A stretch of DNA of 63,613 nucleotides, counting the filler, from Candidatus Woesearchaeota archaeon (GTDB taxonomy: Archaea > Nanobdellota > Nanobdellia > Woesearchaeales > CAZJJJ01): NCBI GenBank assembly GCA_046538795.1. It is 5 parts of 5 records of this genome, joined end to end, with 100 filler letters (N's around TTAATTAATTAA, not from the genome) between each part and the next. Parts side by side here need not be neighbours in the genome. Positions count along the whole stretch, not along the records: positions 1 to 13,854 come from JBKHIF010000037.1; 4 more parts are not named here. One strand, given 5' to 3'. The stretch's first letter is position 1; the number at the start of each line of letters is the position of its first letter. This document shows, in pieces, positions 42 through 53,283 of this stretch. The notes beneath the pieces are model-generated. The model saw nothing but the letters and a program-made list of their open reading frames with translations, ran no database searches and was not told the origin of the DNA. The translations under genes were made by a program, and so were the position numbers.

Positions 42-169
42 TGGCGCCGAGGCTGGGATTTGAACCCAGGTGCCCTTGCGGACAGTAGATCTTTGTGTAC
101 CATGCGTAGTGATCTAAGCACAAATGTACTTAGCAATCTACCGCAATGGCCAGGCTATGCGACCTCGGC
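42..169 (-). tRNA. tRNA-Ser(GCT) with 40-nt canonical (37/38) intron at 91..130; CCA encoded
   Basis: Reverse complement folds as GCCGAGG/CCTCGGC acceptor stem, GTAGA/TCTAC anticodon stem with TT-GCT-A loop, long variable arm TGTCC-GCAA-GGGCA, GGTTCAAATCC T-arm, G73 and CCA. Confidence 0.93.
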
Positions 170-226: not shown

Positions 227-371
227 ATAACTCAAACCGATGGCTATTCCCCGACCTGCTCGAAGAGTACCCTTGCAGGGCAAACCCCACAAAAACGAAA
301 AGAAATTTTTTAAATTTCTGCGCACATTGAAACAAGGTTTCAATCGTGTTTCATGCGAAATGTTCAATAAA
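227..371. repeat. Dispersed structured repeat R1, copy 1 (full length, 145 bp)
   Basis: 8 mismatches over 145 ungapped bp to 45797..45941; first 61 bp also match 32936..32996. Confidence 0.95.
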
Positions 372-13854: not shown

Positions 13855-13954
13855 NNNNNNNNNNNNNNNNNNNNNNNNNNNNNNNNNNNNNNNNNNNNTT
13901 AATTAATTAANNNNNNNNNNNNNNNNNNNNNNNNNNNNNNNNNNNNNNNNNNNN
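13855..13954. other. Artificial contig linker
   Basis: 100 bp of N with central TTAATTAATTAA (stops in six frames). Confidence 0.98.
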
Positions 13955-15616: not shown

Positions 15617-16510
15617 TTAAAGGTTTTGAATGGTCTTTGAAAATCTAAAGGTAAAAACAGCAATAATGCGTGAAAATAATGATTTTTTGAAAAGGTTTCC
15701 TCTAAGCCCATCATTTATGTTTTTGAAATGCGTGTGAACAAGAAAATTGCTTGCTTTCTGGCTGAGTCTTATATTATGGCTTATCTTTCTTATGAAATTA
15801 TCTGAATAACCAAACCTTCCCAGAGAAGATAAAACCTGCTTAATAGTAAAGCCTGAAGCAGAGATTATCCTGATTTTCTTTATGATTGTATATATATTTG
15901 AATTTGGGTAAATCAGGAAAGACTCGCGTATCATGTTATCAAGCTCATTTTCAATCTCCCTGAAAGAAGAATTCACCATATGGAAATCCCATCCATGATC
16001 AAGAAGCACCTGTTTTATCTTGAGATCAGAATAATCATAATAAGCGATTATAGAGAATAATTTTTTAAGATTATGTATAAGAAAATCAATATTTTTGTGC
16101 GGAGTATCAAGCCCGATGTCGTCCATATAATATTGTATGCTTTTTTTCATGCTCTCTTCTGAAAACAATAAGGGAAGCGAAAAATATGAACATTCTCTTA
16201 TCTTTGATATGGTTTTTCGTCCACGCATGAGTCCTGTATAGCTCAGGATGCTGTCATAACCTTTTAGTCTTATATAAAGTGGTTTTTCATCTATCCTTGT
16301 TTCTCTGAAAACACTGAACATTTCTTTTTCATTTCTGGAATAAAATGATGCATAGATATTTGCAAAGATTGCAAAAACACCCAATAAAATTGCTGCAAGG
16401 ATTATATGAAGACTGTAATCCCATTGCATGATAACCCCATATGCATAGCTTAAACTATTAAAAAAATTATTGAAATATATTTCCATGTTTGAAAAAGATG
16501 ATTGAAACAT
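15617..16510 (-). CDS. Hypothetical membrane-anchored protein
   Basis: 297-aa ORF with one N-terminal TM; GGAG RBS. Confidence 0.6.
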   Translation of the reverse strand: MFQSSFSNMEIYFNNFFNSLSYAYGVIMQWDYSLHIILAAILLGVFAIFANIYASFYSRNEKEMFSVFRETRIDEKPLYIRLKGYDSILSYTGLMRGRKTISKIRECSYFSLPLLFSEESMKKSIQYYMDDIGLDTPHKNIDFLIHNLKKLFSIIAYYDYSDLKIKQVLLDHGWDFHMVNSSFREIENELDNMIRESFLIYPNSNIYTIIKKIRIISASGFTIKQVLSSLGRFGYSDNFIRKISHNIRLSQKASNFLVHTHFKNINDGLRGNLFKKSLFSRIIAVFTFRFSKTIQNL

Positions 16511-16558
16511 ATTTGACTCCTGTTTTTCAAAGTAAAACCTAAAACAGGATCACCTGCC

Positions 16559-17509
16559 TCAGGAGAACATGTAAACTCTTTTTTGGTTCACAAGGTCAGG
16601 AACAACTATTGAGATTGTCCTTGGAGTTCCTGATTTAGGAACAAGACGCACATCCATCTCTTCATCTTCATGTATTGCATGCGGAGCGACAAGCGCAAGC
16701 TTTACCACATCTCCTCTCTGAAGATATCCTTCAAGATACTTGCTTGATTTCATAAGGTAATCAACAGAATATGCACCCTGCTCAAAAGCAGTACCCTCAC
16801 CTACTATCATAAGAGTGTTAGTATCAAGTCTTCCTGCTGTAGTACTGTATCCGACCAGACTTAATGTTCCATAAGCTACTCCATCACCATCTTCTATCCT
16901 TGAATTAAATGTCCTGAAATGTACTGGGGATGATTCTGACGCAGATGATATATTCTGGTTTGATCCAGAATCAAAAGATAGACGTACAAATGAAAGGAAG
17001 GAATTTGATGAATTAGATATATTGAATCCAATGTGGGTCTCATTGACAAAAGCATAATAATCAACCTGATCATCACCTGAGAAGTCAACAATATAATTGT
17101 CCAACGCAAACCAGGTCGTATTATCTATATTAGTTGGATCACCATCTATAGCAAGGTCATGTATCCTTTCTCCATATACAGAGTCTATTGAAGTTGTAGC
17201 AGTATCTATCTCTAAAAGCAGATCCTTGAATTTAAGGGCATCAGATCCTGGCGCAAGCTTCATCTTCATATAGAATGACTCAAGCGTCTTATCTGATCCG
17301 TCTTCTCCATAGACAAGAATTGTTGAAATGCCTGTACCAATCTCCTGTTTTGCCTTTTCTCCTGTGAGAAGAGCCTTGTTTTGAAGAGCAGTCGCAGTCT
17401 GAATGATTACTCCTGCAGCAATAGCTGCAACAACTATCATTGCGATAAAGACTATCAGTGTTCCAATTGCCATGTCAGCTTTCTTGTTTTTCATTTTTTT
17501 CATAAGCAT
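16559..17509 (-). CDS. flaB: Archaellin (archaeal flagellin) 2
   Basis: KKA|DMAIGTLIVFIAMIVVAAIAAGVIIQTA..LQNKA..TG class III leader and archaellin helix; KLAPGSD motif. Confidence 0.9.
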   Translation of the reverse strand: MLMKKMKNKKADMAIGTLIVFIAMIVVAAIAAGVIIQTATALQNKALLTGEKAKQEIGTGISTILVYGEDGSDKTLESFYMKMKLAPGSDALKFKDLLLEIDTATTSIDSVYGERIHDLAIDGDPTNIDNTTWFALDNYIVDFSGDDQVDYYAFVNETHIGFNISNSSNSFLSFVRLSFDSGSNQNISSASESSPVHFRTFNSRIEDGDGVAYGTLSLVGYSTTAGRLDTNTLMIVGEGTAFEQGAYSVDYLMKSSKYLEGYLQRGDVVKLALVAPHAIHEDEEMDVRLVPKSGTPRTISIVVPDLVNQKRVYMFS

Positions 17510-17544
17510 AAAACATCACCGTAAAAATCATTAGTATCATCTAA

Positions 17545-18441
17545 CTATGAAAACATATATACTCTTTTTTGATTGACAAGATCAGGAACAACAATTGAAA
17601 CTGTTCTTGGAGTTCCTGATTTAGGGACAAGACGCACATCAATTTCTTCATCTTCATGTATTGCATGCGGAGCGATAAGCGCAAGCTTTACTACATCTCC
17701 TCTCTGGAAATATCCTTCAAGATACTTGCTTGATTTCATAAGGTAATCAACAGAATATGCACCCTGCTCATAGGACGTTCCTTCGCCTATGATAACTAAA
17801 ACCTCATCGTCAAGGACACCTGCTGTGCTTGTTTTTCCTACAACACTTGCAGTTCCGTACTTGGTTGTTCCATTTGTTATGTATGAATTGAACGTGCTAA
17901 TCTCAACAGGATTTGCAGTACTTGCTGATGAAATATCTCCTGAAACCGACAATGCAAGCGAAGCCATGATTCTTGAAGAGACAGATCCGTTTGAGATGTT
18001 GAAAAGCAAGGAGTTTCCATTTAATCTTACATAATCAACAAAATCATCATTATTAAGGTCAACTATATAATTGTCAAGAGCAACATAATCAGAATCAAGA
18101 TTTCTTAGTCTTTCTCCATATATAGCATCAACCGATGAAGTTGGAGTATCAACTTCAAGGAGTAGATCCTTGAATTTCAGCGCATCTGAACCCGGAGCAA
18201 GCTTCATCTTTATATAGAATGACTCAAGCGTCTTATCAGAACCATCTTCTCCATAGACAAGAATTGTTGAAATGCCTGTACCGATTTGCTGTTTTGCCTT
18301 CTCGCCCGTAAGAAGAGCCTTGTTTTGAAGAGCTGTCGCAGTCTGGATGATTACTCCTGCAGCAATAGCAGCTACAACAATCATCGCGATAAATATTATC
18401 AATGTTCCTATAGCCATGTCAGCTTTTTTGTTGTCCATCAT
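17545..18441 (-). CDS. flaB: Archaellin (archaeal flagellin) 1
   Basis: Same N-terminal signature; paralogue of the adjacent gene. Confidence 0.9.
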   Translation of the reverse strand: MMDNKKADMAIGTLIIFIAMIVVAAIAAGVIIQTATALQNKALLTGEKAKQQIGTGISTILVYGEDGSDKTLESFYIKMKLAPGSDALKFKDLLLEVDTPTSSVDAIYGERLRNLDSDYVALDNYIVDLNNDDFVDYVRLNGNSLLFNISNGSVSSRIMASLALSVSGDISSASTANPVEISTFNSYITNGTTKYGTASVVGKTSTAGVLDDEVLVIIGEGTSYEQGAYSVDYLMKSSKYLEGYFQRGDVVKLALIAPHAIHEDEEIDVRLVPKSGTPRTVSIVVPDLVNQKRVYMFS

Positions 18442-25753: not shown

Positions 25754-25815
25754 AGATAAAAGAAAAAGAAGTTTTATTTAAAATAGTTTCGAAGAAAATA
25801 ATATTATTCGATTTG

Positions 25816-26145
25816 CACCAGTCTGGATTCAACAAAATCTATGATTTTGTGCACAAGAATTCTGAAAGAATTTTTAGTGTGAACCAAACGGTTCAAAGCC
25901 GGATGCTTTTTTTGAAGAAAAAAACACCAGTCTGGATTCGCTAGCGAAACGAAGTGAAGCGCGTGCCAAAATTTCAAAGAAATTTTGAGCATGAACCGAA
26001 CGGTTCAAAGCCGGATGCTTTTTTTGAAGAAAAAAACACCAGTCTGGATTCAACAAAATCTATGATTTTGTGCACAAAAATTCTGAAAGAATTTTTAGTG
26101 TGAACCAAACGGTTCAAAGCCGGATGCTTTTTTTGAAGAAAAAAG
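25816..26145. repeat. tRNA-Cys-linked tandem array, 3 units (109/112/109 bp) with variable internal hairpin modules
   Basis: Units start at 25816, 25925 and 26037 (CACCAGTCTGGATTC...); units 1 and 3 differ at 1 nt; unit 2 has a different 52-nt core. Confidence 0.95.
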
Positions 26146-26216
26146 CACCAGCCCGGATTTGAACCGGGGATCTCCGCTCTGCAGGCGGACGCCTTGGGCC
26201 ACTTAGCTACTGGTGC
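26144..26216 (-). tRNA. tRNA-Cys(GCA), no intron, CCA not encoded
   Basis: GCACCAG/CTGGTGC acceptor stem, CCGC-CT-GCA-GA-GCGG anticodon arm, GGTTCAAATCC, U73 discriminator. Confidence 0.95.
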
Positions 26217-27361: not shown

Positions 27362-27461
27362 NNNNNNNNNNNNNNNNNNNNNNNNNNNNNNNNNNNNNNN
27401 NNNNNTTAATTAATTAANNNNNNNNNNNNNNNNNNNNNNNNNNNNNNNNNNNNNNNNNNNN
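27362..27461. other. Artificial contig linker
   Basis: N run with TTAATTAATTAA. Confidence 0.98.
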
Positions 27462-32935: not shown

Positions 32936-32996
32936 ATAACTCAAACTGATGGCTATTCCCCGACCTGCTCAAGGAGTACCCTTCTAGGGTAAACCC
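32936..32996. repeat. Dispersed repeat R1, short copy (61-bp core only)
   Basis: 6 mismatches over 61 bp to 227..287. Confidence 0.92.
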
Positions 32997-33020
32997 AAAA
33001 TTTAGAAATAACACTATAAA

Positions 33021-40420: not shown

Positions 40421-40520
40421 NNNNNNNNNNNNNNNNNNNNNNNNNNNNNNNNNNNNNNNNNNNNTTAATTAATTAANNNNNNNNNNNNNNNNNNNNNNNN
40501 NNNNNNNNNNNNNNNNNNNN
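40421..40520. other. Artificial contig linker
   Basis: N run with TTAATTAATTAA. Confidence 0.98.
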
Positions 40521-45796: not shown

Positions 45797-45941
45797 ATAA
45801 CTCAAACCGATGGCTATTCCCCTACCTGCTTGAAGAGTACCCGTTCAGGGCAAACCCCACAAAAACGAAAAGAAATTTTTTAAATTTCTACGCACATTGA
45901 AATAAGGTTTCAATTGTGTTTCATGCGAAATTTTCAATAAA
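45797..45941. repeat. Dispersed structured repeat R1, second full-length copy
   Basis: 137/145 identical to 227..371. Confidence 0.95.
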
Positions 45942-53183: not shown

Positions 53184-53283
53184 NNNNNNNNNNNNNNNNN
53201 NNNNNNNNNNNNNNNNNNNNNNNNNNNTTAATTAATTAANNNNNNNNNNNNNNNNNNNNNNNNNNNNNNNNNNNNNNNNNNNN
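53184..53283. other. Artificial contig linker
   Basis: N run with TTAATTAATTAA. Confidence 0.98.

Follow-up and report, generated by a model that had tools for sequence, protein, structure and literature searches.

A small double-hairpin cassette, conserved in shape and inserted without target duplication, in genomes of the archaeal order Woesearchaeales

An intergenic repeat of about 145 nt, here called R1, raises two questions: does it carry a module that recurs, in other letters but in the same shape, in an array behind a tRNA-Cys gene, and is that module mobile? A sequence-only reading of 63,613 nt of woesearchaeal DNA (the window) had proposed both, placing the module at 301-349 and likening it to the folded substrates of integron integrases and HUH transposases. 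The window consists of five contigs (C12, C14, C15, C16 and C29) of the source genome (G000), an archaeal draft of 1.34 Mb, 35% GC and 97.6% completeness, joined by N spacers. The spacers account for the top "repeat family" of a repeat search of the window, which is an artefact. Coordinates are collected in Table 1. Elsewhere the window holds three adjoining ORFs of about 300 aa (15617-18441) that share 300-nt blocks of 83-85% identity and are recent tandem paralogues, and an incomplete archaeal 16S rRNA gene at the end of a contig (40510-41782, minus strand). Rfam at gathering score returned only tRNA and SSU rRNA in the window, and nothing credible in six element loci.

Table 1. Features of the window, and cassettes behind start codons at loci elsewhere.
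Feature	Position	Strand	Basis or score
N spacers joining contigs	13855-13954, 27362-27461, 40421-40520, 53184-53283		
R1 scaffold repeat; ATAA at each end, unique flanks, no terminal inverted repeat	227..370	+	
Dumbbell cassette within R1	296..348	+	52.5 bits (covariance model), folding, module-less R1 copies
Hairpin 1 of this cassette, base decayed	296-322	+	
Hairpin 2 of this cassette, CAC..bulge C..GTG	323-348	+	
Three-unit array behind tRNA-Cys	25815..26144	-	
Cassette A1, 50 nt	25830..25879	+	50.2 bits
Cassette B, 53 nt, second hairpin of TGC/GCA type	25939..25991	+	weak, 24.9 bits
Cassette A2, 50 nt	26051..26100	+	53.4 bits
tRNA-Cys(GCA), intact	26144..26216	-	
"Short copy": chimera, left part from R1 and right end from R2; lacks the cassette and the R1 right end	32936..33012	+	
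R1, second window copy	45797..45940	+	
Dumbbell cassette within second R1 copy	45866..45918	+	covariance model
Cassettes after toxin-antitoxin-type ATG	L046:1483-1540, L052:1487-1542, L057:1486-1541 and 2564-2619, L071:1502-1557		

On re-reading, the letters quoted for 301-349 and for module A of the tRNA-Cys array proved correct, and the two modules are indeed alike: each folds into a hairpin followed by a bulged hairpin (DNA z-scores of -3.6 and -3.5). The limits were misplaced. The flanking scaffold is kept in 24 R1 copies, and two of them lack the cassette alone, by exactly 53 nt in C49 and to within 1 nt in C22, and these module-less copies set the limits at 296-348; T349 is target DNA. 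The same two copies bear out the claim that the module is optional in R1, though not on the ground given for it: the "short copy" on which it rested is not R1 minus its module but a chimera, in which the left part of R1 is joined to the right end of R2, another repeat family. C49 and C22 differ in the variant of a neighboring hairpin, and both variants also occur in module-bearing copies, which is compatible with two precise losses as well as with an older state.

The standard form of the cassette is 52 nt long and built as a dyad: 3 bp, one bulged base, 8 bp and a loop, then the mirror image. The dyad is best kept in C5, in C76 and in a tRNA-Ser unit on C45 of the source genome; in a common type of 51 nt, 2 bp and an A-G mismatch replace the first bulge. 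A one-base bulge lies 3 nt from either end, and both bulges are on one strand. The first hairpin had been described as plain. Its 8-bp stem and short loop stand, but it too has a base of 2-3 bp with a bulge, which is what makes the unit dyad-symmetric. The second hairpin is bulged as described, on a conserved base stem of CAC/GTG rather than GCAC/GTGT, and in a circular fold the G of "GCAC" pairs with the first base of the cassette itself. In this predicted fold the two hairpins stack end to end, so that the 3' and 5' ends of the cassette meet within a continuous helix of 5-6 bp opposite the hairpin junction, bounded on each side by a bulge or mismatch. In most cassette types the two ends lack mutual complementarity, and there is no terminal inverted repeat. 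The window copy is a decayed cassette, the decay lying at its 5' end.

The shape of the cassette is conserved while its sequence changes. In 14 hand-picked members hairpin 2 pairs throughout (100%), and 9 of its 11 pairs have changed on both sides. A pattern search of metagenomes in which hairpin 2 alone was fixed returned 120 loci, 98 of them scorable for hairpin 1; an abutting hairpin 1 with 7 or 8 of 8 Watson-Crick pairs was present in 71 of the 98, compared with 1-3 of 96-98 at offset positions, and 27 second hairpins had no 7-of-8 first hairpin. The first bases pair with the hairpin junction in 56 of 111 metagenome matches (0-2 of 108-112 at offsets). Strand-specific folding found no significant support in hairpin 1, where a symmetric count gave 7 G-T to 3 A-C mismatches and a count of 12 to 0 came from scoring that favored G-T; a hairpin-1-anchored pattern run on 401 genomes of the class yielded just 6 rows, from 4 genomes, which is not enough to judge wobble in hairpin 2. 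Covarying stems, together with the tRNA-Ser unit of the source genome, which bridges the R1 and tRNA-Cys versions in sequence, uphold the proposal of one shape-defined family in different scaffolds.

A descriptor search against shuffled controls was the check that the sequence-only reading had suggested. With sequence anchors it gave 24 matches in the genome and 0, 0, 0, 0, 1 and 0 in six block shuffles; as 22 of the 24 are copies of R1 and two are module A of the tRNA-Cys array, the matches are not independent and carry little weight alone. By shape only there were 91 rows (some places twice), against 40 and 34 in shuffles. The bare GCAC..GTGT pattern is present in the window at a marginal excess (8 against a mean of 4.1; 4 of 100 shuffles reach 8). 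It could be argued that AT-rich, terminator-like hairpins have arisen by chance or convergence and form no single mobile family, given that the stems are A/T runs, that the shape-only background is 34-40, and that most matches within the genome are one repeat. Set against this are the offset controls, the bacterial control, selection for reading frame and comparisons of empty with filled sites; the three-state series at an IS200 gene described below refutes it, and we give it virtually no credence.

Occurrence in other genomes was determined with a covariance model built from 14 members that were selected by pattern and by eye. The model matches 92 of 150 genomes of the same order at E<=0.01, 25 of them with at least 10 matches (counts per genome are among at most 38 scored matches listed, and both strands can count). 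Three of the 150 are unpublished (G127 and G138, matching; G118, non-matching), and without these the figure is 90 of 147; nothing else claimed here draws on the sequence of the three. Five AT-rich bacterial genomes gave one weak match. In a phylum-level draw, mostly of the same order, 53 of 150 genomes matched at E<=0.001, and two of the 53 belong to other orders. Simpler patterns were less specific: the first order-wide pattern hit 10 non-self places in 9 genomes, comprising 4 cassettes and 6 chance or coding matches, and a GTDB scan found the full cassette at 7 of 33 loci, all labelled archaeal, the other 26 (25 bacterial, 1 archaeal) being dropped. Of five loci matched in viral scans, four had no stem. 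Named records with cassettes of this kind have Woesearchaeota or Nanoarchaeota in their titles; L052 and L057, labelled "uncultured Methanosarcinales", hold typical cassettes in DPANN-like gene contexts, which may reflect a wrong label, a wrong bin or transfer.

Within the source genome, R1 is present as 23 copies with both left and right ends. R2 is a second dispersed family (100-260 nt, 11 complete copies, for example L096 at C87:5548-5777), and the two swap ends: the arrangements comprise 23 L1-R1, 11 L2-R2, 4 L1-R2, 2 L2-R1, one nested and 23 single ends. The 5' base of hairpin 1 is decayed in 20 of 29 R1-borne cassettes, the window copy included, which suggests that they spread as passengers of R1. 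It is likely that the window cassette rides passively in R1 and that most copies in the source genome spread inside it. Full-length R1 and R2 are predicted to repeat the fold on a larger scale, each comprising two domains and an internal linker to which the outer arms of the domains pair; the first domain of R2 and the cassette share a AGAAAATC/GATTTTCT arm. The idea that R1 needs this junction-complementary linker to move is weakened by the fact that its commonest form, of 145 nt, lacks the linker. A sequence search for R1 in 40 relatives returned no full match; a compact R1 without any cassette is present in G145, and R1-like arms surround a different cassette at two metagenome loci. The R1 and R2 scaffolds also contain a CCCC..GGGG palindrome (L147, L150, L166) that resembles the ends of woesearchaeal IS200 elements, while the scaffold termini differ. 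Contigs from sequencing runs contained no empty allele at 227-371 or in the tRNA-Cys array, which proves nothing. No excised circle was seen either.

A second setting is provided by tRNA genes. Each unit of the tRNA-Cys array comprises a trailer hairpin, an inverted T-arm copy, a T-arm copy interrupted by a cassette, and a copy of the tRNA 3' end, the cassettes splitting the T-arm copy between tRNA positions 57 and 58. In cassette B, hairpin 1 is purine-rich and has few standard pairs. A downstream copy of the tRNA 3' end accompanies 13 of 28 T-arm-like sites examined, and in G134 the same layout, with the same CAC..GTG hairpin, stands behind two tRNA-Gln genes. ARAGORN and Rfam missed a gene resembling tRNA-Ser(GCT) that has an intron of some 40 nt (window 42-169, minus strand); window bases 1-41 form the beginning of a tRNA-linked unit lying downstream of it, which carries on at the end of contig C13 of the source genome. 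The source genome has many tRNA introns, and one of these, a 111-nt intron in tRNA-Tyr (G000:C30:35104-35288, minus strand), holds a small dumbbell whose second hairpin matches the right domain of R1.

Evidence for movement comes from other genomes, in which cassettes are found as stand-alone, precise insertions; on this point the sequence-only reading was right. One site in an IS200 tnpA gene is empty in G090 and G148, filled by 51 nt in G145:C42 and by 103 nt in G145:C13, the longer insert being a second cassette in the center of the first. Elsewhere in the same tnpA gene of G145:C13 is a further insert, of 53 nt. Placement at both sites is ambiguous by at most 1 nt, so there is no target duplication. 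A cassette of 54 nt forms an exact 18-residue insert in a TMEM165/GDT1 transporter and is absent from all 13 aligned homologues, picked among 120 matches listed. To these cases can be added a test of reading frame on 93 cassettes with 150-nt flanks: all 12 with an open frame across the joined flanks are 51 or 54 nt long, compared with 38 of the other 81 whose lengths are multiples of three (Fisher p=3e-4), and these lengths confirm the cassette boundaries. Relative to the genes, nine in-frame copies are antisense and three sense. Several further cassettes stand directly after the ATG of toxin-antitoxin genes, where they supply a GGTGA loop and a terminal GTG and may replace the ribosome site and start codon. 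Cassette insertion is precise, free of target duplication, indifferent to gene orientation and capable of nesting into cassette centers.

These data bear on the possibility that the cassette moves as RNA, cut in the manner of an intron by the tRNA splicing endonuclease, circularized and reverse-transcribed into DNA. The cassettes in T-loop copies behind tRNA genes, and the R1-like mini-dumbbell of the tRNA-Tyr intron in a genome rich in such introns, speak for such a route. However, copies lie in genes in both orientations, and those selected for frame are likely to be translated, not spliced. Both one-base bulges are on the same strand, in contrast to the bulge-helix-bulge motif. Furthermore, reverse transcriptase (RT) is without a match in the source genome and shows no co-occurrence with cassettes across the 150 genomes (p 0.53-0.84). 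We regard the RNA route as very unlikely.

The choice of target is loose and AT-rich, with RAWN to the left and TWT to the right (55-56 sites). Flanks pair with each other more strongly than permuted flanks (-6.0 versus -5.2 kcal/mol; 0 of 150 permutations), while a test for short-range inverted repeats gave 1 of 55 against 0.9 expected. Direct repeats of two bases are in excess (22 of 55, 12.1 in permuted flanks), as are those of three (7 versus 3.1); the excess of two-base repeats may reflect the composition of T runs, and leans against the statement that there is never any duplication. Self-pairing flanks are what might be seen if breakage of cruciforms or palindromes is followed by repair through host enzymes (junction resolvase, polymerase, ligase) that copies a cassette into the gap with no dedicated strand transfer. 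The junction resolvase Hjc is encoded by the source genome and by 138 of the 150 genomes, and R1/R2 chimeras attest to active recombination among repeats. Capture by repair would not be expected to yield boundaries that are fixed to the base across families and exact with respect to frame, and we think repair patching quite improbable; for mitochondrial hairpin elements such a route has been proposed.

Searches of the source genome for a mobilizer returned no match for Y1, RAYT, IS110, RT, serine recombinase, IS1595 or TnpB; the genome being a draft, these blanks are no proof of absence. Across the 150 genomes, Y1 genes are present in 56: 39 of the 92 with cassettes and 17 of the 58 without (p=0.12), or 12 of the 25 cassette-rich genomes and 44 of the other 125 (p=0.26). 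GIY-YIG nucleases likewise show no co-occurrence with cassettes in this set, and a 91-aa GIY-YIG gene of the source genome has no cassette in the flanks inspected. All such tests are rough, since kin genomes are not independent. G022, a single contig rated 100% complete, has 25 cassette matches and no match for Y1, GIY-YIG or RT, which points away from a dedicated, linked transposase. Clustering of ORFs near cassettes at 157 loci produced toxin-antitoxin, HTH and housekeeping families only, and no recurring mobilizer; an autonomous form, in which the two hairpins would enclose a gene, was not seen, and no RAYT gene flanked by cassettes was found in the source genome or the loci searched.

Accordingly, the suggested link to HUH transposases finds no support in either the gene content of the source genome or the co-occurrence data. 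One form of it holds that the cassette is a terminal-only PATE, in which the two ends of an IS200/IS605 element have fused, and that a Y1 HUH transposase (TnpA or RAYT) moves it in trans as single-stranded DNA. The parallel is close: in the available parts of the relevant papers, PATEs, including a 52-bp terminal-only form from Haloquadratum, match the cassette in size, in having two hairpins, and in lacking both terminal inverted repeats and target duplications (PMC3119063, PMC7290912). Y1 genes do occur in the order, in the 56 genomes given above, and the R1 and R2 scaffolds contain the palindrome that resembles IS605 ends. Unlike PATEs as described there, the cassette has hairpins that are terminal rather than subterminal; no parent insertion sequence sharing its ends was found, and no fixed target of four or five nucleotides was seen (PMC3119063, PMC7290912). 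At 32 Y1 loci strong matches fell inside tnpA (L142) or about 160 nt past the end of the element (L141), never at its ends. A PATE origin is in our judgment unlikely.

Integron-like recombination was the other suggestion. Under this alternative the cassette is a minimal attC site, and a tyrosine recombinase, either IntI-like or the XerA of the host, recombines its folded bottom strand. Tyrosine recombinases cut at the edge of their overlap; here the opening is midway along the central helix, and 0-1 nt is shared with empty targets. An XerA-like gene is present in the source genome, and two similar 8-bp arms surround a center of 5-6 bp, but the protein scores 173 bits against an integron-integrase cut-off of 265 (TIGR02249), its best match being archaeal XerA (194 bits, cut-off 220). 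Recombinase presence is associated with the presence of any cassette match (84 of 92 versus 46 of 58, p=0.048) at the lowest threshold only (p=0.80 and 0.53 at higher ones), and G007, 91% complete, has at least 38 cassette matches and no tyrosine recombinase match. With tyrosine recombinases in 130 of the 150 genomes, and Hjc in 138, both are too common for co-occurrence to serve as a test of such core enzymes. Like attC in the portion of the source available, the cassette has a folded strand, extrahelical bases and a circle junction inside a duplex; it differs in lacking the RYYYAAC and GTTRRRY boxes and AAC crossover triplet (absent from aligned members), a cargo gene, IntI and, apparently, a fixed orientation, and in its central opening (PMC5027507). 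We consider the attC reading slightly less probable than the RNA route.

Three other Xer-like proteins of the source genome, two with tandem catalytic domains and one with a single domain (G000:C21:5819-6859, C21:10127-10648 and C63:4582-5649), were rejected as movers: catalytic residues are missing by eye and no cassettes flank the genes in the stretches inspected. At least two of the three immediately precede genes that encode very large proteins of secreted type, and the proteins are possibly repurposed DNA-binding regulators.

The attC reading thus founders on the missing R boxes, on the score of the integrase and on an opening that is central, and the PATE reading on ends and target. We therefore favor, with somewhat better than even confidence, a mobile, non-coding cassette of 50-60 nt that is moved as a folded single-stranded DNA dumbbell by an enzyme acting in trans, most likely a housekeeping enzyme of the host. 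The circle, the strand and the enzyme we infer. On this model the two hairpins would stack, bringing the ends together in the helix of 5-6 bp; an enzyme supplied in trans would cut and rejoin the folded single strand, a single strand transfer at the meeting point of the ends releasing a closed dumbbell and rejoining the donor. The reverse step would place the dumbbell in a new site, and replication would copy the second strand. Full-length R1, which has the same ends-meet topology, would carry most copies of the source genome passively.

How does the cassette relate to known repeats? REPINs are doublets of REP sequences, and REPs bear a GTAG tag. The cassette resembles REP and BIME elements as an inverted doublet of a short hairpin that forms mosaics and arrays, and differs from REP/BIME-RAYT systems in having no RAYT in the source genome or flanked by cassettes, no tag of the GTAG type, and halves that differ in sequence. 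Unlike MITEs, it has neither terminal inverted repeats nor target duplications. Further comparisons follow the available parts of the cited papers. The SMR-A and SMR-B elements of Haloquadratum (80-110 bp, with terminal inverted repeats) are likewise archaeal, transposase-free and without target duplication, are found in palindromes or other elements, and have no assigned mobilizer; the cassette is smaller (50-60 nt), lacks the terminal inverted repeat, has at each end a self-contained bulged hairpin and keeps its shape across an order (PMC3119063). Fungal mitochondrial double-hairpin elements and yeast GC clusters are also small, with two hairpins, a constrained structure, and merging or nesting, but they are organellar and GC-rich, and GC clusters have short flanking direct repeats, whereas the cassette is AT-rich, prokaryotic, duplication-free and dyad-symmetric (PMC10085805, PMC4478555). 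By structure, the cassette qualifies as a double-hairpin element, having two adjacent hairpins, conserved structure and mobility. Rickettsia palindromic elements share in-frame insertion in unrelated protein genes; they are about 150 bp and encode a conserved peptide, while the cassette contributes 17-18 codons on either strand and conserves shape (PMC10969869).

The cassettes are thus a variant among transposase-free hairpin repeats, a kind already known. No description of the family was found in the literature searched, as far as the available text goes; supplements, such as those of a Nanobdellota preprint (10.64898/2026.05.13.725050), could bear on its novelty. New here are the symmetric geometry in which the ends meet, the count across the order and its controls, the insertion series with three states, the test of reading frame and the negative outcome of the enzyme profiling. 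Their value is as a small, base-exact substrate for asking how transposase-free hairpin repeats (SMRs, mitochondrial double hairpins, Rickettsia elements) move: the cassettes are 51-54 nt long, their ends and empty sites are known, natural nested intermediates exist, and most of the genomes sampled in one order carry them. A synthetic oligonucleotide of the cassette would allow candidate enzymes to be tested, and an enzyme that inserts DNA without scars under the guidance of shape would serve as a tool.

A bolder conjecture, which we hold tentatively and with more doubt than belief, is that the cassettes are self-contained DNA parasites of about 50 nt without a partner transposon, that a core archaeal enzyme reads their shape only, and that their own centers are the preferred target, so that nesting builds R1, R2, the tRNA arrays, start codons and the inserts in tRNA introns. 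If true, this would add a new mechanistic class of insertion system, one that is programmed by shape and free of duplication. The cassettes reshape the genes of their hosts, through inserts of 17-18 residues, start codons that they may replace, and copies behind tRNA genes.
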